This document shows, in pieces, positions 15,533 to 38,042 of a stretch of DNA of 39,891 bases (positions are counted from its first letter, which is position 1; each line of letters opens with the position of its first letter). The notes below the pieces were generated by a model. The model was given only the letters and a program-made list of their open reading frames with translations. It ran no database searches and was not told the origin of the DNA. Both the position numbers and the translations under genes were made by a program. This DNA is from Candidatus Ventricola sp. (GTDB lineage: Bacteria; Bacillota; Clostridia; Christensenellales; Aristaeellaceae), in assembly GCA_051886775.1 (NCBI GenBank), contig JBJEYK010000043.1, positions 1 through 39,891 of the forward strand, read 5' to 3'.

Positions 15533-16423
15533 TCATGAAAGCAGGGCCGCGACCAGCGCCAGCACGGCTGCCGCGATCAAAAGCGCCCAGTCCCTGCGGC
15601 TGAGCCTGCCCAGGGGCTTCACCTGCGCGTGCGCGCCGCGCGATGCCAGCGCCCTGCGCAGGGCGTAGACGAAGGCCAGGCACAGCCCCAGCCGCAACGC
15701 GCACGAGGGCAGCGTCAGCCCGGCAAACAGGCCGCCCAGCCCGGCGTACTCCAGCACGATCAGCGTAAGGTTGTAGACGCCGTGCACCAGCACGGGCGCA
15801 AGCAGTGAGCCGGTCCTCAGCGTGAGCGCCGAAAGCAGCAGCCCCATCGCCGTGTACAGCAGCCAGACATGGGGCACGCCGCCCATGTGCGCCAGCGCGA
15901 AGCACAGCGCGCTGACCCACGCGGCGCGCCCGCGCCCATAGCGCTCCAGCGCGTGCAGCAGATAGCCGCGGAAGAACAGCTCCTCCAGCACCGGTACGAG
16001 CAGCGCGCTCTTGAGCAGGGCCAGGATGAACGCCCCCGGCGCGCGCACCGCGAAGGTCACGCCCGCCGTGCCCCCGCCATAGGCCAGGCTGCGCAGCACG
16101 TCCGCGCCAAGCGTCATCGGGGCGACGGCCAGCGCGCCCAGCAGCGACAGCCACAGCGCCTGCGCCCGGCTGAGCGCGGCGCGCGGCAGGATTTTGCGCT
16201 GGTCGCCGTCCAGCACGCGCAGCCCCAGATGCGACGCGCCGCCGAAGACGAGCGCCGTCGCCGCCAGCTCAAGCACCAGGCCGAAAGGCTGCGTACGAAA
16301 GCCCGTGCCGTTCAGCGTGGCCGGCAGCCGATACAGCGCCATCGCCAGGCAGGCCCCGGCGGACAGAAGAAGCGCGGAGCGCGTCCTCACACGCCGCCGC
16401 GCTCCGGTCGATCGCAGCCTCAT
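15533..16423 (-). CDS. CPBP-family intramembrane glutamic protease (CAAX protease-like)
   Basis: Polytopic, with EELFFRGYLL (EExxxR), FALAHM (FxxxH) and HGVYN (HxxxN/D). The ATG overlaps the upstream stop (ATGA). Confidence 0.8.
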   Translation of the reverse strand: MRLRSTGARRRVRTRSALLLSAGACLAMALYRLPATLNGTGFRTQPFGLVLELAATALVFGGASHLGLRVLDGDQRKILPRAALSRAQALWLSLLGALAVAPMTLGADVLRSLAYGGGTAGVTFAVRAPGAFILALLKSALLVPVLEELFFRGYLLHALERYGRGRAAWVSALCFALAHMGGVPHVWLLYTAMGLLLSALTLRTGSLLAPVLVHGVYNLTLIVLEYAGLGGLFAGLTLPSCALRLGLCLAFVYALRRALASRGAHAQVKPLGRLSRRDWALLIAAAVLALVAALLS

Positions 16424-17463
16424 TTGTCAAACACGATGTCGCGCTGGATCGCATAGCTGATCATGAACAGCACCACGTCCACCGGAATCTTGAGCACATC
16501 GCCGGAGACGGGCAGCACACGCGGCAGGAATTCCACAAGCCCCGCGCCGATCGCGCCCTGAATTACGCACAGTGCGTAATACTTCACCACGGCGTACTTG
16601 CCGCCGCGCTTACCGAAGACGGCATGCTTGTTGATGTGGTAGTTCACCTGCGAGGAGACCACGCGCGCCAGCGCGTACCTGAGCCAGTACATCAGCCCGA
16701 ATTGCCGCAGCAGGTAGAACAGCGCCAAATCCACCACGGTGGAAAAGCCCGAGGAGAACAGGTACGCAAACAGATGCCGGAAGATGACGCCGTAGATGCG
16801 CAGCGCGTCGCGCACGGGATTGAAGTGGCTGCCCGCGTTGTCGTCGATGTAGATCGTCTCGATGGGCACCTCGCAGACGCCCAGATGCATGTCGCGTAGC
16901 TTGAGCAGCACGTTCATCTCGTACTCGTAGCGCTCGCCGCCGATGCGCACCATCGCCTCCAGCGAGGCGCGCGGCAGGGCGCGCAGGCCGGTCTGCGTGT
17001 CGCCCACATGCGTGCCGCTGACCATCGTGTATACCGCGCGGGTGATGCGGTTGCCCCAGCGGCTCTTGAAGGGCACGTCGCCCGTGAAGCAGCGGGAGCC
17101 GAGCACCAGGCAGTCGGGATGTGCGCGCAGCGCGTCGATCAGGCGCAGGATGTCCTCCAGGGTGTGCTGCCCGTCGGCGTCGGCGGTCACGATGCCGGCC
17201 ATGTCCGGCCAGCGGAGCATGGCCTCGTTGATGCCGGTCTTCAGTGCGCGGCCCTTGCCCAGGTTCACCGCGTGCGTGGCCACCTGCGCGCCCAGCGCGC
17301 GGCAGCTTTCAAAGATATGTGCAAAGGCCTCGCCGCCGCCGTCGTCCACCAGCAGCACGTCAAGCTCCTTCCCGCGCAGCGCGCGGGTCAGCTCGGTCAG
17401 GCGGTCGTCCGGCTTGTAGGCCGGGATCAGCACCACCACGCGCGAATCGGTCTTATCGCCCAT
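16420..17463 (-). CDS. Family-2 glycosyltransferase fused to a C-terminal GtrA-like membrane domain
   Basis: 347 aa: VVVLIPAYKPDD, LLVDDGGG, VTADADGQH (DxD), then four TM helices with the GtrA pattern (FSSGFSTVVDLALFYLL...VNYHINKHAVF). Only the C-terminal part of track ORF 16420..18687 is real. Confidence 0.8.
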   Translation of the reverse strand: MGDKTDSRVVVLIPAYKPDDRLTELTRALRGKELDVLLVDDGGGEAFAHIFESCRALGAQVATHAVNLGKGRALKTGINEAMLRWPDMAGIVTADADGQHTLEDILRLIDALRAHPDCLVLGSRCFTGDVPFKSRWGNRITRAVYTMVSGTHVGDTQTGLRALPRASLEAMVRIGGERYEYEMNVLLKLRDMHLGVCEVPIETIYIDDNAGSHFNPVRDALRIYGVIFRHLFAYLFSSGFSTVVDLALFYLLRQFGLMYWLRYALARVVSSQVNYHINKHAVFGKRGGKYAVVKYYALCVIQGAIGAGLVEFLPRVLPVSGDVLKIPVDVVLFMISYAIQRDIVFDK

Positions 17464-17575
17464 AGGTACTCCTTTGTTGCTTGCATTCATTCTCGCCGCC
17501 GGCAGCAGCCGACAGCCATCGACAGTATACCCCTGCCCCCGGAAAAAGTCAAGCGCGGCCTGCATTGCGCGCGTC

Positions 17576-17604
17576 TTGTGCCGGGCGGCGCTTTGTGCTA
17601 TAAT
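17576..17604 (+). promoter_or_regulatory. trpS promoter (TTGTGC-17-TATAAT with TG extension)
   Basis: cTTGTGCcgggcggcgctttgTGcTATAAT. That leaves a leader of only ~50 nt to the AAGGAGG RBS. Confidence 0.55.
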
Positions 17605-17661
17605 GGGGCAACGGTTTCGCGCCCCGCGGCGCGCATCATCATCATAAGGAGGTTCCTCCGT

Positions 17662-18669
17662 ATGGAACAGAACCAAGCGCGCAGGCAGCGCATCCTCTCC
17701 GGCATCCAGCCCTCCGGCACGCCGACGCTGGGCAACTACATCGGAGCCATGCGCAATTGGAAGCTGCTCGAGGATCAGTACGACTGCCTGTACATGATCG
17801 CCGACCTTCACGCCATCACCGTGCGCCAGGAGCCGGCGAAGCTGCGCCAGCAGTCCATGCAGCTGCTGGGGCTTCTGCTGGCCATCGGGCTTGATCCGGA
17901 AAAGAACGTGCTTTTCTTCCAGAGCCATGTGCCCCAGCACGCGGAGATCGCCTGGCTGCTCAACTGCTACACCTACATGGGCGAGATGAGCCGCATGACC
18001 CAGTTCAAGGACAAGAGCGCCAAGCACGCCGACAACATCAACTGCGGCCTGTTCACCTACCCCATCCTCATGGCGGGCGACATCCTGCTGTATCAGGCCA
18101 ACCTGGTGCCCGTGGGCAAGGATCAGACCCAGCACCTGGAGATCTGCCGCGACATCGCCGCGCGCGTCAACGGCCTGTACGGCAGCGTGTTCACCATCCC
18201 CGAGGGGTACTATCCCAAGGTCGGCGCGCGCGTGATGAGCCTGCAGGAGCCCACGCGCAAGATGAGCAAATCCGACCCGGACGACTGCTTCATCTCCATC
18301 CTCGACACGCCCGATGTCATCCGCCGCAAATACCGCCGCGCCGTCACCGATTCCGACGCGTGCATCCGCTTCGACCCTGAGCAGAAGCCCGGCGTAAGCA
18401 ACCTGCTGAGCATCCTGTGCGCGCTGACGGGCGAGAGCATCGACTCCCTGTGCGCCTCCTTCGAGGGCAAGGGCTACGGCGAGCTGAAGGCCGCCGTGAC
18501 CGACGCCACCATCGAAACCCTCGCGCCCATCCAGGCCGAGTTTACCCGCCTGATGGGGGACAAGGCGTATCTGGAGTCGGTCTACCGCACGGGCGCACAG
18601 CGCGCCGGCTCCCTGGCCGAGCGCACGCTGCAAAAGCTGATGAAGAAGATCGGCTACGTCGCCAAGTGA
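17662..18669 (+). CDS. trpS: Tryptophan--tRNA ligase
   Basis: 335 aa. SGIQPSGTPTLGNYIGA (HIGH-region equivalent), GKDQTQHLE and KMSKSD (KMSKS loop). Confidence 0.95.
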   Translation: MEQNQARRQRILSGIQPSGTPTLGNYIGAMRNWKLLEDQYDCLYMIADLHAITVRQEPAKLRQQSMQLLGLLLAIGLDPEKNVLFFQSHVPQHAEIAWLLNCYTYMGEMSRMTQFKDKSAKHADNINCGLFTYPILMAGDILLYQANLVPVGKDQTQHLEICRDIAARVNGLYGSVFTIPEGYYPKVGARVMSLQEPTRKMSKSDPDDCFISILDTPDVIRRKYRRAVTDSDACIRFDPEQKPGVSNLLSILCALTGESIDSLCASFEGKGYGELKAAVTDATIETLAPIQAEFTRLMGDKAYLESVYRTGAQRAGSLAERTLQKLMKKIGYVAK

Positions 18670-18675
18670 TCCGAG

Positions 18676-18712
18676 CCCGCGCCGCACTGCGCCGCGCGGG
18701 TTTTGTCTTTTT
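18676..18712 (+). terminator. Rho-independent terminator after trpS
   Basis: CCCGCGC...GCGCGGG stem followed by TTTTGTCTTTTT. Confidence 0.75.
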
Positions 18713-18724
18713 CCTCCGCGCGTC

Positions 18725-18752
18725 TTTACATCTCCATATTTTGTGGTATAAT
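18725..18752 (+). promoter_or_regulatory. Promoter of the small NrdD-like gene (TTTACA-16-TATAAT, TG-extended)
   Basis: cTTTACAtctccatattttgTGgTATAAT. Confidence 0.6.
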
Positions 18753-18794
18753 TGACGCATAAGCACCAGATATAGTTTTTCGGAGGTCATACCC

Positions 18795-19064
18795 ATGTGC
18801 ACTGTGAACATCACCGGCGGCGCCTGCCCTCAGCAGGAGATCGACGCCTATATCGCCCGCGGCGCAGAGCTGTACGGCCGCGAGCCGGACGCCATCGACG
18901 TGCGCCTGGACGGCGAATACGTCGAGCTGGCCTATCACTATCAGAACCAGCCCTTCCACCGCATCCGCCGCATCACCGGCTATCTCGTCGGCACGCTCGA
19001 CCGCTTCAACAACGCCAAGCGCGCTGAGGAGCGCGACCGCGTCAAGCACGGGATCGAGATGTAA
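18795..19064 (+). CDS. Stand-alone small protein carrying an NrdD-type C-terminal glycyl-radical motif
   Basis: 89 aa. The C-terminus HRIRRITGYLVGTLDRFNNAKRAEERDRVKH matches, block for block, the C-terminal glycyl-radical segment of class III ribonucleotide reductase as I recall it for E. coli NrdD (RRVCGYLG..RPFNAGKQEEVKRRVKH). It has its own promoter, a GGAGG RBS and a downstream hairpin. Confidence 0.6.
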   Translation: MCTVNITGGACPQQEIDAYIARGAELYGREPDAIDVRLDGEYVELAYHYQNQPFHRIRRITGYLVGTLDRFNNAKRAEERDRVKHGIEM

Positions 19065-19091
19065 GCCTGTTTCCGGAAGCCAGACAATCGC

Positions 19092-19127
19092 ATACACAAA
19101 CCGGGCGGCTGCATACGCAGCCGCCCG
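19092..19127. terminator. Shared hairpin between the convergent small gene and the hybrid kinase gene
   Basis: CGGGCGGCTGC-atac-GCAGCCGCCCG. On the minus strand it is followed by GTTTGTGT. There is no U-tract on the plus side. Confidence 0.6.
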
Positions 19128-19166
19128 AAAGCATATGTCCTCATTCCCTGCGCCGGGCGTTTCACC

Positions 19167-21887
19167 CTACGCCTTCTGCCCGAGCTGCGCGATGGTGCGC
19201 AGCATCTGCCCGACATCCAGCGGCTTGGCCAGGTGGGCGTTCATGCCCGCGCCCAGGCACTGCTGCACGTCCTCCGAAAAGGCGTTGGCGGTCATCGCCA
19301 CAATCGGCAGCGTCGCGGTGTCGGATCTGCCCAGCCGGCGGATCTGGCGCGTCGCCTCGCACCCGTCCATGACCGGCATCATCACGTCCATCAGCACCAG
19401 GTCGAAGGCGCCGGGCGCCCGGCTGCGCACGGCCTCCACCGCCTCCAGGCCGTTGGCCGCAACGGTGATCTCGGCCCCCTCCTCGCTCAGGATGGTCTCG
19501 GCGATCTCGCGGTTCAGCTCGTTGTCCTCCACCAGCAGGATCCGCATGCCGCCGATGGAGGCGGACGCCTGCGGCTCGGCCTGCTGGATTCTCGGCCCGT
19601 CGGCCAGCTCGAAGGGAACGGTCACCACAAACGTGCTTCCCACGCCCAGTGTGCTGGAGACCTCCAGCGTGCCGCCCATCTGCTCGATGAGCGCCTTGGC
19701 GATGCTCATGCCCAGGCCGGTGCCCTGGTTCACGCTCTGCTCGTCGGTATTCTCCTGGACGAACGGCTCGAAGATGCGCCCCAGGAATTCCTCGCTCATG
19801 CCGATCCCCGTGTCGGTGATCGTCCAGCGATAGGTGACGCTGCGCTCGTCGTGCGCCGGAAGCTCGATCTGCGTCGTAATCCGCCCGCCCTCGTGGTTGA
19901 ACTTGATGCAGTTGCTGTAAATGTTCATCAGCGCCCGGCGCAGATGCAGCGGGCTGCCATAGACCCAGGCGAAGCGCTCGTCCGGCCTTTCAAAATGCAC
20001 CGTGGAGGCAACGCCCTTTTCCTGCGCCTGCAGGTTGATGATCGTCTGCGCCTCGCGTCCCTCCTGGAAGATGTCGAACGGCTCATGGGCGAGCACCATG
20101 CTGCCGTCCTCTATCTTGGCCATGTCCAGCACGTCGTTGATCAGCGAGGCCAGATGCTTGGCCACGATGCCGGCCTTGCGGCGGCTCTCGCGCAGATAGT
20201 CGATGTCGTCGGCGTGCTTTCTGTCGATTTCCAGCAGGCCGATGATGCCATTGAGCGGCGTGCGCATGTCGTGGGACATCCGGGCCAGGAAGCGGGACTT
20301 CTCGGCGTCGGCGCGCCGGGTGTCCTCCAGCGCCTTCTGCAGGCGCTGCTGCTGCTCCACCTCCGCCGCGACGATATCGTCCACGTTGAGAAGCCCCAGC
20401 ACGACGATGCCGTATTCCTCGTTCTTGATGAAGCGGAACTGATAGTGATGGGTTCTCCCCTGATCGATCACCCGGAAATTGCCCGCGTATTCCTGCCTGC
20501 TGGCCAGCGCGTCCAGCACGCTGCTCAGCCGCGTCGCCGCCGTCATCATCATGCGGTCGTCGGGATGCACATGCGCGTCGATGTAGGCCGCCATCATCTC
20601 GTCATACGGGCATACGTCCTTCTGCCAGAGGTCCTCCGGCAGGAAATCCTCGTGCTTGATCAGCGTCGCCGTGCCGGCCCGGGTGTTGAGCAGGAACACG
20701 TCCAGATAATTGCTGCTCAGCGTCTGCACGATGCTGACCTGCGTCTCGTAGGCCTCGCGGTCCTGGGTCACGTCCATGCCATAGAAGACGCCCTCCAGGT
20801 GGTTGTTGGCGGGGTTGACAAACAGGCGCAGCGTGTAGCGCGACCAGCGGGCGACGTGATCGTCATAATAGCAGCGGGATTCGCGGATGATCTCCACCTT
20901 GCCCGCCTCATAGTCCCGCTTCATGGCCTCCAGGCTGTACGCGCTCAGGAATTCCTGGCGGTCGCGCTCCGAGAGGATGTACACCGCCATGCTTTGCATC
21001 AATGCGTCGATGGTTCGGTCCCGGTCAAGCTCGTCCACGATGGCGGAGGTGCCGCCGACCCGGAGGATCCGGTTCCCGGTGATGTCCAGATGGAAATAGC
21101 CCGCCGCGTCGGACAGCGAGGACACCAGGGCGTCGAGCTGCTTTTCGTAGATGCGCTTGGTGGCGATGTCGTCGTCCTCGCAGGCGACGGCGACCACGAT
21201 GTCCTCAAAGCTGTCGGCCTCGCCGTTGCGCGCGATGAGCAGATAGTAGTAGTGCACCGCTTCGCCCAGCAGCACGCGCAGGTGCACCTTGAAGGAGGCG
21301 GCGCTGTCCAGCCGCCGGCGCACGCTCTCCAGCGAGAGCTGCTCCCGGACGGCGGCGCGCTCCTCCGGGTGAATGTAGCGCGTCACAATCAGCTCGAGCA
21401 CTTCGTCATAGCCCATGCTGTCGCGAAGGCCGTCGTCGCTGCTGCCGAACAGCTCGTCGTCGCGGAAGACGGAGATCCTGCGGCTCTGCATGCTCACGCC
21501 GAACACCGTGCGATACTTGACCGATAGCAGGTTGAGCGCGCCCAGCAGCCGCAGCGAGCCCTCGCCCGTGGGGATGGCGCTGGACAGGCGCGCGCCCTCG
21601 GCCACGGTGCTGAACACCAGCGCATGCCCCCTGCTGCCGTCGGGATGCACCGTGTCCACCGCGTCCACCGTCTCATAGATGTGGCGGATGGGATCGAGGT
21701 ACGTCTTCGGGCCGTGAATGCCGCCTGCGACGGGGCAGGGCGGGCAGGGCGCATCCAGCCCCATCAGCGCGCGGTAGCACTTCTCCCCCAGCTTCAGGTT
21801 CGGATAAATCTGCCGGGCCGTGTCGTTGAAGCCAATGATCGTGTATTCCGCGTCGATGCTGTAATACCCGGACGAATGCTCGCTCAT
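19167..21887 (-). CDS. Soluble hybrid sensor histidine kinase / response regulator with a long multi-domain N-terminal sensor region
   Basis: Start at MSEHSSGYY (M10 of the track ORF, GGGAGG RBS). I see no TM helices. A Cys-rich N-terminus (C-x9-CPPC) and ~550 aa of PAS-like sensor sequence are followed by the H-box RMSHDMRTPLNGIIG, an N box, G1 TDTGIGM and G2 GTGLGMSI. A REC domain follows (ILLVEDNELN...VLMDVMMPVMDG...AKPL). No HPt domain. Confidence 0.85.
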   Translation of the reverse strand: MSEHSSGYYSIDAEYTIIGFNDTARQIYPNLKLGEKCYRALMGLDAPCPPCPVAGGIHGPKTYLDPIRHIYETVDAVDTVHPDGSRGHALVFSTVAEGARLSSAIPTGEGSLRLLGALNLLSVKYRTVFGVSMQSRRISVFRDDELFGSSDDGLRDSMGYDEVLELIVTRYIHPEERAAVREQLSLESVRRRLDSAASFKVHLRVLLGEAVHYYYLLIARNGEADSFEDIVVAVACEDDDIATKRIYEKQLDALVSSLSDAAGYFHLDITGNRILRVGGTSAIVDELDRDRTIDALMQSMAVYILSERDRQEFLSAYSLEAMKRDYEAGKVEIIRESRCYYDDHVARWSRYTLRLFVNPANNHLEGVFYGMDVTQDREAYETQVSIVQTLSSNYLDVFLLNTRAGTATLIKHEDFLPEDLWQKDVCPYDEMMAAYIDAHVHPDDRMMMTAATRLSSVLDALASRQEYAGNFRVIDQGRTHHYQFRFIKNEEYGIVVLGLLNVDDIVAAEVEQQQRLQKALEDTRRADAEKSRFLARMSHDMRTPLNGIIGLLEIDRKHADDIDYLRESRRKAGIVAKHLASLINDVLDMAKIEDGSMVLAHEPFDIFQEGREAQTIINLQAQEKGVASTVHFERPDERFAWVYGSPLHLRRALMNIYSNCIKFNHEGGRITTQIELPAHDERSVTYRWTITDTGIGMSEEFLGRIFEPFVQENTDEQSVNQGTGLGMSIAKALIEQMGGTLEVSSTLGVGSTFVVTVPFELADGPRIQQAEPQASASIGGMRILLVEDNELNREIAETILSEEGAEITVAANGLEAVEAVRSRAPGAFDLVLMDVMMPVMDGCEATRQIRRLGRSDTATLPIVAMTANAFSEDVQQCLGAGMNAHLAKPLDVGQMLRTIAQLGQKA

Positions 21888-21950
21888 CTTTCGTACGCCT
21901 CCCGCCGATATCACGGACGAAACCGCTACAATTGCATTCTCTTTTTTGTT

Positions 21951-22056: not shown

Positions 22057-23151
22057 TCAGCTTCTGCTGCGCCGGTCAATCCCGCGCTGCTGATAGAACG
22101 CGCGCTTATCCTCGTACATGCGCTGCTCCGCGCACCGGACCAGCCCGTTCATGTCGCATGCGTCAGCCGGCTGCCGCGCGCAGCCCACCGAGATATGATC
22201 GCCCGCCTGCTCGACGGCGCGGCGGAGCCGGTCAATCCGACCGTTCAGCGCATCCTCCGGGCAATCCGGCACGAAGGCCAGCATCTCATCGCCGCCGACG
22301 CGATAGCTGTGCTCCGTGCCAAAGGCGCGCTGCAGCTCGCCGGCGACGCGCCGCAGCATTTCGTCCCCGGCCTCGTGCCCGCGCGCATTGTTCAGCTCGT
22401 GCAGGCCGTTCACGTCGACATAGACGCACGCGAGCGAATCCCGGCACTGCCCGGGCGCCCGGCTCAGGCTCTGCTCGAAGGCGTTGCGGTTGAGCAGCCC
22501 GGTGAGCAGGTCGGTCCGGCTGAGCATGATCACCTGCTGCTCGTACAGGTAGCGCTTGCATTTGACGCCCATCATGTAGGTGCTGATGATGGCGCTGATG
22601 GCGCCGAAGACCACTGCGTTCATGATGTCGACAAAGCGCTGCTTGGGCTCCTTGGTCGCCATCACGATGATCGAGAACCCCAGCACCGCCAGGCAGATCG
22701 TCAGCACCATGCGGCAGGGGCGATCCACAAACAGCATCGGCGCGGTGAGCAGAATGGCAATGAAGCTGACGGACAGCTCCTCCGGATCCAGCACGGTGCC
22801 CGTGAGGATGCTCATGGCAAACAGACCGCCCAGGAACACATACAGCACCAGCAGCATCCGCCCGCGCGTCCAGGGCAGGCGCGACGCCCCGAACGCCAGC
22901 GCGGACACCGCCATGCCGCCGAAATAGACCCAGCGGTTGTCCGCCACCGGGGTATAGAAAAACGTACCCGCAAACATCGCCAGCAGGAACGCGCCGGAGA
23001 CGAGCGAAAATATGCGCATGCTCTGGCGGTTGCTGCGGATGATTTCCTCATCCAGCTGCCGGAATTCATCCAGCGTCAGACCGGCAGAGCACAGGTATCG
23101 TTTGATCCATTTCAAGGCCCGCTTCACGTCTTTTCCCCCTTCTGAATCCAT
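22057..23151 (-). CDS. Membrane-anchored diguanylate cyclase (GGDEF domain; motif reads GGDEM)
   Basis: The 364-aa version starts at MDSEGG. An alternative GTG at 23127 has GGGGGA 6 nt upstream. Five or six TM helices, then LTGLLNRNAFE...GDEMLRRVAGEL...YRVGGDEMLAF. I see no RxxD I-site just upstream of the motif. Confidence 0.8.
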   Translation of the reverse strand: MDSEGGKDVKRALKWIKRYLCSAGLTLDEFRQLDEEIIRSNRQSMRIFSLVSGAFLLAMFAGTFFYTPVADNRWVYFGGMAVSALAFGASRLPWTRGRMLLVLYVFLGGLFAMSILTGTVLDPEELSVSFIAILLTAPMLFVDRPCRMVLTICLAVLGFSIIVMATKEPKQRFVDIMNAVVFGAISAIISTYMMGVKCKRYLYEQQVIMLSRTDLLTGLLNRNAFEQSLSRAPGQCRDSLACVYVDVNGLHELNNARGHEAGDEMLRRVAGELQRAFGTEHSYRVGGDEMLAFVPDCPEDALNGRIDRLRRAVEQAGDHISVGCARQPADACDMNGLVRCAEQRMYEDKRAFYQQRGIDRRSRS

Positions 23152-23164
23152 GATAGCATGCGTT

Positions 23165-23252
23165 CGGCAAGAAAAGCAATCCCCTTGCGGCAGATTGCTT
23201 TCGTTTCTTTTTTCGCAAAAGGCCATGCCCCCGTGCTCGCGGGGACATGGCC
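23165..23252 (-). terminator. Tandem rho-independent terminators after hydA
   Basis: Minus strand reads GGCCATGTCCCCG-cgagca-CGGGGGCATGGCC + TTTTGCGAAAAAAG, then AAGCAATC-...-GATTGCTT + TTCTTG. Confidence 0.75.
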
Positions 23253-23270
23253 TTTGTGGTGGGTGCCGGA

Positions 23271-25010
23271 TTACTTCCTGCTGCGGTCGGTGTAGGTGGT
23301 GTGCAGCAGCTCGTGCGCCCGGTGGCCGTTCGGCTCGCCGAGGTACTCGGCGTAGAGCTTCTGGATGTCCGGGTTCTCGTGGGACTTGCGGATGACCTTC
23401 GCCTCGTCCTCGGCATACAGGCCGGCGGCGCGCACCTTGCGCGGATCGAGATCCATGCGCTTGGTGGCGTTGACGATGGGCTGGCCGCCGCCGTTGACGC
23501 AGCCGCCCGGGCAGGCCATGACCTCGACGAACGCGTAGCTGGCGTCGCCCGCCTGGATGCGGCGGATCAGCTTCTTCGCCGCGCCGGTGGAGCTGGCGAT
23601 GGCGACCTTGAGCTCCTTGCCGCCGAGGGTGAAGGTCGCTTCCTTCACGCCCTCGATGCCGCGGACGGCCTGATACTCGACGTTCTCCACGGAGCGGTTC
23701 TCCAGCACGTCGGCTGCGGTGCGCAGCGCGGCCTCCATGACGCCGCCGGTCACGCCGAAGATCGCCGCCGCGCCGGTGGACTCGGCCACCAGCTCGTCGA
23801 AGCACTCCTCGTCGGGCAGGCTGGCGAAGTCGATGCGGGCGTCGCGGATCATGCGGGCCAGCTCACGGGTGGTGATGGTGATATCCACGGAGCGCAGCTC
23901 CTCGACCTCCATCTCCGGGCGGGCCGTCTCGAACTTCTTGGCCGTACACGGCATCACGGCGACGACCACGATGCTGCGCGGGTCGATGCCGGCCTTCTCG
24001 GCGTAGTAGCTCTTGATGATCGCGCCCTCCATCTCCATAGGAGACTTGCAGGTGGACAGGTTCGGGATCAGCTCCGGGAAATTGTGCTCGACGTACTTGA
24101 TCCAGCCCGGCGAGCAGGAGGTGAACATCGGCAGCACGCCGCCGTTCTTGATGCGGGAGATCAGCTCGGCGGCCTCCTCCATGATGGTGAGGTCGGCGCC
24201 GAAGTCGGTGTCAAACACCTTGTCAAAGCCGAGGCGGCGCAGCGCCTGGGACAGCTTGCCGGTGACGCGGGTGCCCATGGGCAGGCCGAACTCCTCGCCC
24301 AGCGCCACGCGCACAGCCGGGGCCGGCTGCACGACGACGAACTTCTCCGGATCGGAGATGGCGTCCCACACGCGGTCGGTATCGTCCTTCTCGCGCAGCG
24401 CGCCGACCGGGCAGACGTTGATGCACTGGCCGCAGTTGATGCAGTCGGTCTCGCCCAGCTTCTTGCCGAAGGCCGGGGAGATCACCGTCTTGAAGCCGCG
24501 GTTGATCGCGCCGATCGCGCCGATGCCCTGCACGTTGCGGCACGCGGCCACGCAGCGGCGGCACAGGATGCACTTGTTCGGATCGCGCACGACGGACGGG
24601 GAGAACATGTCCAGCGGATACTCGATGTTCGCGCCCTCGTACTTGGTCTCGTCCGCGCCCAGCTCCTTTGCCAGCGTCTGCAATTCGCAGGTCTGGCTGC
24701 GCACGCAGGAGAGGCACTTGCGCTCGTGGTTGGAGAGGATCAGCTCCAGCACGGCCTTGCGCGCCGCGCGGACGTTCGGGGTGTTGGTCTTGACGACCAT
24801 GCCCTCGGACACCGGCATCACGCAGGCCGCGGCCAGCGCGCGCGCGCCCACGTCCACCACGCACATGCGGCACGCGCCGATGGCGTTGACGTCCTTGAGG
24901 TGGCAGAGGGTCGGGATGTGGATATTCGCCTGATGGGCGGCCTCCAGCACGGTGGTGCCGGCGGGCACCTGCACCGCGACGCCGTCAATCGTTACATTCA
25001 CCATTGCCAT
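23271..25010 (-). CDS. hydA: [FeFe]-hydrogenase catalytic subunit, HydABC (NADH/ferredoxin-dependent, bifurcating-type) family
   Basis: 579 aa. N-terminal [2Fe-2S] domain (CHLKDVNAIGACRMC), accessory 4Fe-4S motifs (CILCRRCVAAC, CINCGQCINVC) and H-cluster motifs FTSCSPGW, VMPCTAKKFE and EVMACPGGCVNGGGQP. A C-terminal small-subunit-like tail (RKSHENPDIQKLYAEYLG). Confidence 0.93.
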   Translation of the reverse strand: MAMVNVTIDGVAVQVPAGTTVLEAAHQANIHIPTLCHLKDVNAIGACRMCVVDVGARALAAACVMPVSEGMVVKTNTPNVRAARKAVLELILSNHERKCLSCVRSQTCELQTLAKELGADETKYEGANIEYPLDMFSPSVVRDPNKCILCRRCVAACRNVQGIGAIGAINRGFKTVISPAFGKKLGETDCINCGQCINVCPVGALREKDDTDRVWDAISDPEKFVVVQPAPAVRVALGEEFGLPMGTRVTGKLSQALRRLGFDKVFDTDFGADLTIMEEAAELISRIKNGGVLPMFTSCSPGWIKYVEHNFPELIPNLSTCKSPMEMEGAIIKSYYAEKAGIDPRSIVVVAVMPCTAKKFETARPEMEVEELRSVDITITTRELARMIRDARIDFASLPDEECFDELVAESTGAAAIFGVTGGVMEAALRTAADVLENRSVENVEYQAVRGIEGVKEATFTLGGKELKVAIASSTGAAKKLIRRIQAGDASYAFVEVMACPGGCVNGGGQPIVNATKRMDLDPRKVRAAGLYAEDEAKVIRKSHENPDIQKLYAEYLGEPNGHRAHELLHTTYTDRSRK

Positions 25011-37958: not shown

Positions 37959-38042
37959 GCCGGTGTGATGGAATGGCAGACGTGACGGACTCAAAATCCG
38001 TTGGGGCGACCCGTGTGGGTTCGAGTCCCACCACCGGCACCA
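37959..38042 (+). tRNA. tRNA-Leu (anticodon CAA), type II with long variable arm and encoded CCA
   Basis: The acceptor stem GCCGGTG pairs with CACCGGC. The anticodon stem ACGGA/TCCGT carries the loop CTCAAAA. Variable arm TGGGGCGACCCGTG, T-arm GTGGG-TTCGAGT-CCCAC, discriminator A, then CCA. Confidence 0.9.

Follow-up and report, generated by a model that had tools for sequence, protein, structure and literature searches.

The window analysed in this study is a stretch of 39,891 nt from Candidatus Ventricola sp. (contig JBJEYK010000043.1), and all coordinates given below without a locus name refer to it. The window contains a stand-alone gene for a protein of 89 amino acids (aa), hereafter the small protein, whose last third resembles the C-terminus of NrdD, the anaerobic (class III) ribonucleotide reductase (RNR). 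An initial annotation of this DNA had described the product as a detached NrdD glycyl-radical tail and a possible spare part for class III RNR, and the open reading frame (ORF) at 18795..19064 gives the same protein sequence as was quoted there. Judged by sequence comparison and structure prediction, the protein is a small folded N-terminal domain fused to a copy of the radical loop and tail that end NrdD. We lean towards the view that it serves as a trans-acting glycyl-radical module of class III RNR, most likely as a spare or alternative radical domain in this organism. The parts of the gene are as follows.

18795..19064, plus strand: coding sequence of the 89-aa protein, ATG start, stop codon included
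18795..18944, plus strand: N-terminal domain, aa 1-50, predicted as beta(3-7)-alpha(13-27)-beta(33-39)-beta(42-48) (AlphaFold2, alignment A1)
18945..19061, plus strand: NrdD-type glycyl-radical tail, aa 51-89, PFHRIRRITGYLVGTLDRFNNAKRAEERDRVKH (Pfam, NCBIfam, 8p23, hhalign)
18978-18980, plus strand: codon of the presumed radical glycine G62, within R-I-T-G-Y (NrdD tail alignment)

An NrdD-type tail joined to a conserved N-terminal domain

Profile and sequence searches matched the small protein to the extreme C-terminus of NrdD over residues ~52-86 only, in agreement with the likeness that the initial annotation had drawn. The Pfam NRDD model (PF13597) aligned at positions 532-562 of 562 with aa 52-85 (E 2.9e-7; 30 bits, cut-off 26.2), so that the match is confined to the C-terminal radical loop and tail. 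The NCBIfam NrdD equivalogs (TIGR02487/PRK07111) aligned at positions 708-744 of 746 with aa 50-86 (E 3.6e-12), and the NCBIfam NrdD scores of the protein, 28-45 bits, lie far below the whole-protein cut-offs of 326-764. Residues 706-738 of the 743 residues of Prevotella copri NrdD (PDB 8p23) correspond to aa 53-85, with RITGYLVGT identical in both proteins. Comparison of the profile of the small family with full NrdD by hhalign likewise aligned the tail alone (probability 99.2, E 1e-19, NrdD residues 738-777). The glycine that had been singled out earlier in an R-x-x-G-Y context is G62, which sits in R-I-T-G-Y.

The remainder of NrdD has no counterpart in the small protein. The ten-stranded alpha/beta barrel with its finger-loop cysteine is absent by NCBIfam and hhalign comparison. 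A zinc ribbon (CxxC...CxxC or a variant) before the radical loop is also absent, as had been stated earlier; the sole cysteines are Cys2 and Cys11, neither of which is conserved across the family alignment. No match to the Pfam Gly_radical model (PF01228) or to a GrcA model was found at E<=10 in Pfam and NCBIfam. The protein of the window ends in KHGIEM and carries no cysteine-pair extension after the final KH. Extensions of the CxC or CxxC type after the final KH occur in many NrdDs and in many small proteins (for example P0132, P0138, P0145 and P0152), and at locus L041 the NrdD ends in ...KHFMSECNCD and the small protein in ...KHSLECSCAEF. These extensions are reminiscent of the redox-active cysteine pairs found at the C-terminus of class I and II RNRs.

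Analysis of 34 diverse family members (alignment A1) revealed an almost invariant tail, PFERIRRITGYLVGTLDRFNDAKRAEExDRVKH, in which R59, T61, Y63, N72, K75, E78 and H85 are invariant, while at least 90% of the sequences share G62 and certain further residues. The motif R-x-[TSA]-G-[YF] is kept by 253 of 258 family members. One member of 88 aa, P0223, has RATDY for RITGY, which replaces the radical glycine by aspartic acid, and the rest of its tail is degraded; it may be an inactivated copy. The N-terminal half in A1 follows the pattern xVxVxGG-x5-EIxAY...DGDxVDLxY, in which E15 never varies and Y19 hardly ever does, and AlphaFold2 predicted a beta-alpha-beta-beta arrangement over aa 1-50 with a predicted local distance difference test (pLDDT) value of 87-90. 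No model in Pfam, NCBIfam or PHROGs matched this N-terminal domain, and Foldseek found no match in PDB and BFVD at E<=0.001. Kinship with dodecin was rejected, the phmmer matches (E~1) not being significant. Homology to the NrdD segment before the zinc ribbon is speculative, because hhalign and BLASTP significance lay in the tail only and the gapped BLASTP alignment was tail-driven.

Proteins of this kind form a large family. More than 120 close relatives of like length were found; the best 120 database matches are all 81-131 aa long, mostly 88-90 aa, and are 69-99% identical over their whole length. How widespread such stand-alone genes are, a question raised by the initial annotation, was answered by an exhaustive search of 1.84 billion cluster representatives, which gave 518 clusters (50% identity) at E<=1e-10, and by a scan with one genome per species, which gave full-length matches in 80 loci or species-level genomes. 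The best 150 of the 518 clusters consist entirely of small proteins, of 52-305 aa (mostly 85-120), whose match covers aa ~4-87. The hosts of the 80 genomes are Oscillospiraceae, Ruminococcus (including the cultured R. flavefaciens FD-1 and ATCC 19208), Christensenellales and other Clostridia. PHROGs contained no such family, and INPHARED no annotated cultured phage with the gene; the phage searches gave only two unannotated faecal 'Bacteriophage sp.' fragments that carry it.

Of the codon differences from the orthologue at L005, the closest genome relative (a Ca. Ventricola intestinavium metagenome-assembled genome (MAG), 84% identity), 31 are synonymous and 14 are non-synonymous; the tail accounts for 14 of the synonymous and two of the non-synonymous ones. 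On these codon comparisons, the N-terminal domain and the tail are both under purifying selection. The contexts of the small gene vary between loci, and a remnant of nrdD was not found nearby.

Promoter and candidate NrdR boxes

The signals around the small gene are listed in the order in which they occur.

18687..18709, plus strand: intrinsic terminator of the upstream trpS-like gene, stem 18687-18699 and T-run (terminator scan)
18725..18752, plus strand: sigma-70-type promoter, with -35 TTTACA at 18725-18730, a 16-nt spacer, TG at 18744-18745 and -10 TATAAT at 18747-18752 (11/12 matches)
18731..18746, unstranded: candidate NrdR box 1, TCTCCATATTTTGTGG, carrying C4 A6 A8 T9 T11 G13, in the promoter spacer and up to the TG element (consensus match)
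18763..18778, unstranded: candidate NrdR box 2, GCACCAGATATAGTTT, covering the start of the 5' leader just 3' of the -10 element (consensus match)
18782..18786, plus strand: ribosome-binding site GGAGG, 8 nt 5' of the ATG (by sequence reading)
19101..19128, minus strand: G+C-rich hairpin of 12 pairs with a T-run on the minus strand (terminator scan)

The trpS-like ORF (17008-18669, +) ends at 18669 and is followed by its own terminator, hence the small gene is a separate, monocistronic transcription unit between the terminated trpS-like gene and a convergent kinase gene. The initial annotation had called the gene monocistronic and had given it a near-consensus TG-extended promoter and a GGAGG ribosome-binding site, all of which were recovered here; the promoter is the sole site found in 18300-19500, where shuffles led to an expectation of 0.2 sites. 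The downstream hairpin that it had also reported exists, but its T-run on the minus strand fits the kinase gene. The hairpin is primarily the terminator of that convergent histidine-kinase gene (19167..21914, -) and not a canonical plus-strand terminator, and it may stop the small-gene transcript too. A riboswitch or T-box near the small gene was not found with Rfam.

NrdR boxes are defined as two partially palindromic 16-bp boxes, 15-16 bp apart, in which C4, A6, A8, T9, T11 and G13 are highly conserved (PMC13584703). Pairs were scored by these key bases in both boxes, with a maximum of 12/12. The pair in the window matches 12/12 key positions, has a 16-bp linker, overlaps the promoter and is the only pair of at least 10/12 in the 39.9 kb. 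Pairs of 12/12 appeared in 0 of 300 dinucleotide shuffles of the whole window and in 0.02% of shuffles of the 125-nt intergenic region. Among orthologues, pairs of at least 11/12 are present in 35 of 84 upstream regions, compared with 0.32% of 1244 control upstream regions from the same loci. The 1.27 Mb of fetched sequence holds 44 such pairs, and ~38 of them lie within 200 bp upstream of the small gene. The remaining NrdR-like pairs elsewhere in the fetched loci were discarded as background, those checked preceding unrelated genes (EF-G-like, HTH, ParE). In four nrdD operons, an NrdR-type pair (ACACAATATATTGTGT, 16 bp, ATACAAGGGATGGTGT) likewise precedes nrdD, at a distance of ~52 nt.

Read as a consensus match, the upstream region of the small gene is marked with the signature of the NrdR regulon. 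The likeness to that regulon covers C4, A6, A8, T9, T11 and G13 in both boxes, the 16-bp linker and the overlap with the promoter; the difference is that the putative target here is a stand-alone small gene and not an operon for a complete RNR subunit. Some relatives have three phased NrdR-like boxes, 15-16 bp apart, upstream of the small gene (L005 6762-6857; L006 9914-9992; L025/L026 9898-9976; L077 3987-4065), a layout that resembles the arrangement reported for Thermotoga maritima nrdJ.

NrdDs with and without their own tail

No nrdD, nrdG or nrdR was found in the 39.9-kb window by tblastn with the L041 NrdD, NrdG and NrdR, which bears out the earlier remark that nrdD and nrdG are missing from it. 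The relation of the small gene to NrdD was studied at other loci. The glycyl tail is missing from 24 of the 120 NrdDs that most resemble the L041 enzyme. Tail-less NrdDs end shortly after the zinc ribbon, typically with ...GFERIRRISC... or ...SERIKRIK. Both tail-less bacterial NrdDs that were looked up (L170 and L172) have a member of the small family directly 3', followed by nrdG and nrdR, and the contigs L093, L105 and L155 have a tail-less nrdD followed by the small gene and nrdG. These two-gene class III RNRs are located as follows.

L170, 4001-7816: on a 295-kb contig with housekeeping genes
L172, 4001-7592: NCBI MAG GCA_017478805.1
L093, 6116-9144: IMG/VR; NrdD of 629 aa ending in ...CPKCGRRHRF...SHAD
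L105, 6166-8757: IMG/VR; NrdD of 612 aa ending in ...CPCCGRTEHITITEKVRRIK; the start of the small gene overlaps the nrdD stop codon
L155, 5613-8252: IMG/VR contig

On IMG/VR contigs this two-gene arrangement is common. Viral sequences were analysed in a sample of 110 NrdD C-termini among the matches listed in IMG/VR. In 76 of them the tail is in the same polypeptide and nine are cut by the contig end; 23 are tail-less with a tail-bearing small ORF 3' (about 20 of these ORFs belong to the present family), and the remaining two are tail-less with nothing found downstream. The small gene in tail-less cases is mostly directly 3' of nrdD, no more than ~1.3 kb away, and stop and start codons often overlap. 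The viral contigs L178, L184 and L217 (IMG/VR) carry a tail-less NrdD followed by tail-only ORFs of 49-62 aa (for example MKQAGDGVPFERIRRITGYIVGT...) without the beta-alpha-beta-beta domain. At L161 the NrdD core and tail are ~2 kb apart, possibly owing to a mobile insertion. A chimeric query made of the zinc-ribbon motif and the tail of the window, aimed at the NrdD of this clade, yielded nothing but short pieces of the NrdD C-terminus, each beginning at an internal Met. Many such pieces of 75-107 aa (MKESGIGYGS..., with zinc ribbon and tail) occur among P0390-P0509, for example P0446, P0463 (C. difficile) and P0428; they mostly look like contig-end or frameshift fragments, and a few on long contigs might be another kind of split.

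Beside a tail-less NrdD the small protein is the only carrier of a radical glycine, and it would therefore have to supply the NrdD core with its radical in trans. The tree of small proteins places tailed systems as sisters of tail-less ones (L041 beside L170; L089 beside L172). This placement indicates that the NrdD tail has been lost repeatedly, and repeated loss in turn indicates that the small protein was already competent in the tailed ancestors. Cleavage by O2 at the glycyl radical is established for E. coli and T4 NrdD. The tail-less NrdDs end about where O2 would cut (...ERIRRI-) and appear to represent the state that a spare part would need to repair. Judged by these arrangements, the small family probably also acts as an obligate subunit of tail-less NrdDs. 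No description of the two-gene tail-less arrangement was found in the literature searched. There is a risk that tail-less NrdDs are taken for truncated or inactive genes, and small members are named 'anaerobic ribonucleoside-triphosphate reductase' or 'hypothetical'.

The small gene also coexists with NrdDs that keep their tail. Several low-GC Clostridia have the order nrdD, small gene, nrdG, nrdR (L041, L085/L086 and L089), and the NrdDs of these loci are full length with their own tail. Within each of these genomes the NrdD tail and the small-protein tail are identical at 31-32 of 33 positions and share lineage-specific residues (EEH, EVR, EVN). The two DNA copies of the tail at L041 have roughly eight silent differences and zero amino-acid differences across the shared tail. 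Near-identity of the tails despite silent differences means that both copies are held alike, by selection or by gene conversion. Like tail sequences would be expected if both must fit one barrel and one activase. The L085/L086 operon is Clostridium sp. CAG:1219-like and has an ORF with no Pfam match between nrdD and the small gene (L085 6333-6986, L086 6333-7067; 217 or 244 aa).

A stand-alone case was followed within one genome, that of R. flavefaciens, with an assembly of isolate size (run X25, 3.9 Mb). Here the small gene is located on a 53-kb contig, and a different, 87-kb contig of equal depth matches the tail region only, with all listed differences at third codon positions. Before the tail on the 87-kb contig stands (C)GRKEHSNNV, with which a zinc ribbon ends, and the NrdD core lies just upstream on the same contig. 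It follows that this isolate has, besides the stand-alone small gene, one detectable NrdD, which has kept its tail. The initial annotation had suggested checking whether such genes co-occur with full-length nrdDG, and coexistence with a tailed NrdD was found at L041, L085/86 and L089 and in the R. flavefaciens isolate.

The sequence of the window was found only in pig-gut metagenomes. The same samples contain high-GC NrdDs with their own tail, whose tail DNA is at least 88% identical to that of the window and whose zinc ribbons end, for example, in ...GCGRREDDGV and ...PVVGEGVGFE; the tail region collapses across many organisms in these assemblies, and these tailed NrdDs are not assignable to the genome of the window. 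NrdD C-terminal fragments with the tail sequence of the window were also found (P0412, P0413 and P0452).

Proposed role, competing explanations and neighbouring genes

The preferred reading, that the small protein supplies a radical domain to class III RNR in trans, suggests the following course of events. NrdR would repress the small gene together with the other RNR genes and would lift this repression once the dATP/ATP ratio drops, as it might after a loss of RNR activity. NrdG, the activase, would then use S-adenosylmethionine to take a hydrogen from G62. By the example of the natural split systems, the radical loop would enter the NrdD barrel in place of the mobile C-terminal domain of NrdD and start catalysis via the active-site cysteine. 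Such an insertion is plausible because the radical domain of NrdD is a mobile body that leaves the barrel and that several cryo-EM states show as disordered (PMC11226230). If R. flavefaciens and the operons are a guide, the NrdD of this organism would keep its own tail, and the small protein would be a spare or alternative domain, of most use for NrdD cut by O2.

For the family as a whole, we regard it as an even chance that these proteins are a widespread, detachable radical subunit of class III RNR, which in many gut and rumen Clostridia is an NrdR-induced spare that re-arms O2-cut NrdD and in other bacteria and phages replaces the NrdD tail, giving a two-subunit RNR. With respect to the spare part proposed in the initial annotation, a detached NrdD tail serving in trans is strongly supported by the candidate NrdR boxes, the operons and the tail-less NrdDs, while repair after O2 damage is the more conjectural part. 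That role fits the genomes that have both a tailed NrdD and the small gene (L041, L085/86, L089 and the R. flavefaciens isolate).

GrcA/YfiD, which the initial annotation had named as the established analogue, is functionally the closest known system, though the small protein is no member of that family by sequence, with no PF01228 or GrcA match. GrcA replaces the domain that pyruvate formate-lyase (PFL) loses by O2 cleavage at the glycyl radical (PMC13450708, PMC8683613). The E. coli protein and Y06I of phage T4, both PFL spare parts, share with the small protein the form of a small stand-alone protein with a C-terminal copy of the radical domain of a large enzyme. For its activation GrcA relies on the activase of PFL itself, and the same is presumed for the small protein with NrdG. 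In both cases the copy overlaps the strand retained by the cut enzyme, and phage-encoded versions of both exist (PMC13450708; PMC8683613). The differences are that the tail of the small protein is of the NrdD type and not of the PFL type, that its N-terminal half is confidently predicted as beta-alpha-beta-beta whereas that of YfiD is disordered, that the small gene is apparently under NrdR-box control, and that some NrdDs have wholly lost their own tail, where the small protein would be obligatory. To our knowledge, no PFL/GrcA pair with a wholly tail-less large enzyme has been described.

Comparison with NrdD itself (P. copri 8p23, phage T4) shows that the last ~35 residues are shared, namely the loop R-I-T-G-Y-L-V-G and a surface tail ending in DRVKH. 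The small protein lacks the ATP cone, 10-stranded barrel, finger-loop cysteine and zinc ribbon; at 89 aa against ~610-860 aa and without the barrel, it cannot be a reductase alone. A precedent for a C-terminal module in a separate gene beside the barrel gene is the split class II RNR NrdJa/NrdJb of Pseudomonas aeruginosa (PMC9669993), which differs in RNR class and cofactor. A split class III RNR with an adjacent tail-less NrdD does not describe the window, which has no nrdD within its 39.9 kb. A survey of RNR extensions describes class III RNRs only with the radical domain in the same polypeptide (PMC9669993). A review of June 2026 names formate lyases as the sole glycyl-radical enzymes for which spare parts are known and leaves it to be determined whether there are others (PMC13450708), and a study of YfiD from 2021 likewise leaves this question undetermined (PMC8683613). 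The initial annotation, too, knew of no characterised equivalent for NrdD, and the small family was not described in the literature found on NrdD with spare-part, YfiD, split or small-protein topics. Sequence and genome context thus point to a family of small radical-tail proteins that is large and so far undescribed, with functional roles that would follow from the same evidence.

Several observations weigh against the spare-domain reading. Zinc-ribbon cysteines matter for radical generation in E. coli NrdD. The small protein has no zinc ribbon preceding its NrdD loop, so that its acceptance by NrdG is hypothetical, and AlphaFold2 gave the isolated tail a pLDDT of only 51-64. The NrdR boxes are candidate sites by consensus match. 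Whether the small protein is a spare or the only radical carrier in the organism of the window is judged by analogy, since the window itself holds no nrdD. In the isolate of organism C (L078) an NrdD core was found with no second tail at >=80% nucleotide identity, a result that lends the reading no support but at this threshold hardly decides against it. In favour of the reading, though weakly, contigs from a pig-gut metatranscriptome cover the small gene at greater depth than the neighbouring trpS (an exact 117-nt contig at depth 91 and a 266-nt contig at depth 37, with trpS at ~11) and hint at its expression; these RNA data are assembled contigs with cross-mapping in the conserved tail.

The alternative to be taken most seriously, although we consider it unlikely, is that the NrdD of this organism is itself tail-less and that the 89-aa protein is its sole source of the glycyl radical, the gene having moved away from nrdD while keeping NrdR control. 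Tail-less NrdDs are paired with the small family in bacteria (L170, L172) and on phage contigs, they make up 24 of the 120 NrdDs closest to that of L041, and NrdR control would suit an essential RNR subunit equally well; moreover, no tailed NrdD is assigned to the genome of the window, and organism C showed no second tail at the identity given above. However, in every tail-less case seen the small gene is shortly 3' of nrdD, whereas the gene of the window is unlinked like that of R. flavefaciens, and in R. flavefaciens, the one stand-alone case that lent itself to a test within one genome, NrdD is tailed. Tailed high-GC NrdDs with tail DNA at least 88% identical are also present in the same pig-gut samples, as are the fragments P0412, P0413 and P0452. 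A regulatory role is improbable by comparison: a mimic of the NrdD tail could titrate NrdG or occupy the NrdD barrel and so tune activation rather than catalysis, for which the near-perfect copy of the NrdG substrate and the co-regulation with RNR genes would be suitable. Against this, the repeated loss of the NrdD tail in lineages with the small gene suggests catalytic competence and not mere inhibition, and purifying selection acts strictly on every residue of the tail, the radical glycine included.

Service to another glycyl-radical enzyme or process, with the resemblance to NrdD due to shared ancestry only, is very improbable. The N-terminal domain has no known relatives, which would allow for such a role, but a PF01228 or GrcA match is absent, the tail is of a type specific to NrdD and varies in step with the NrdD encoded beside it in each genome, the operon partners are nrdD, nrdG and nrdR only, and NrdR-type boxes are present. 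We find it hardly credible that the gene is a decaying fragment of a disrupted nrdD, which the initial annotation had named as a finding that would speak against its proposal, or an artefact of gene calling. Assemblies do contain short NrdD C-terminal pieces that begin at an internal Met (MKESGIGYGS...) and arise from contig ends or frameshifts; the small gene has its own conserved N-terminal domain and its own promoter with NrdR-type boxes, stands in varied contexts with no nrdD remnant nearby, and belongs to hundreds of clusters under purifying selection, and a decaying fragment was rejected on these grounds. The reading as a trans-acting radical module, most likely a spare or alternative domain, is retained as somewhat more probable than not.

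Glycyl-radical enzymes are destroyed by O2 via backbone cleavage at the radical glycine, and many strict anaerobes obtain their dNTPs mainly or solely through class III RNR. If the proposed role is true, the small protein would be the first replacement-repair system outside pyruvate formate-lyase, and a cheap 89-aa module that restores class III RNR would help to explain how gut and rumen Clostridia survive pulses of oxygen. The natural sets of tail-less NrdD, small protein and NrdG are ready systems for radical transfer in trans; they would suit the study of substrate recognition by NrdG without a zinc ribbon and the separation of radical generation from catalysis.

With respect to the neighbourhood, a functional tie between the small gene and its neighbours in the window is not evident. 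The window is 65.7% G+C, which gives very long overlapping ORFs on opposite strands and makes mechanical ORF lists unreliable here. For example, a minus-strand ORF of 755 aa (16420-18687, -) overlies the trpS-like gene, and only its glycosyltransferase/GtrA-like part seems genuine. Downstream, the convergent gene at 19167-21914 (-) putatively encodes a hybrid histidine kinase with a receiver domain, and that at 22057-23805 (-) a membrane protein that is GGDEF diguanylate cyclase-like by eye. A tRNA-Leu(CAA) is located at 37959-38042 (+).

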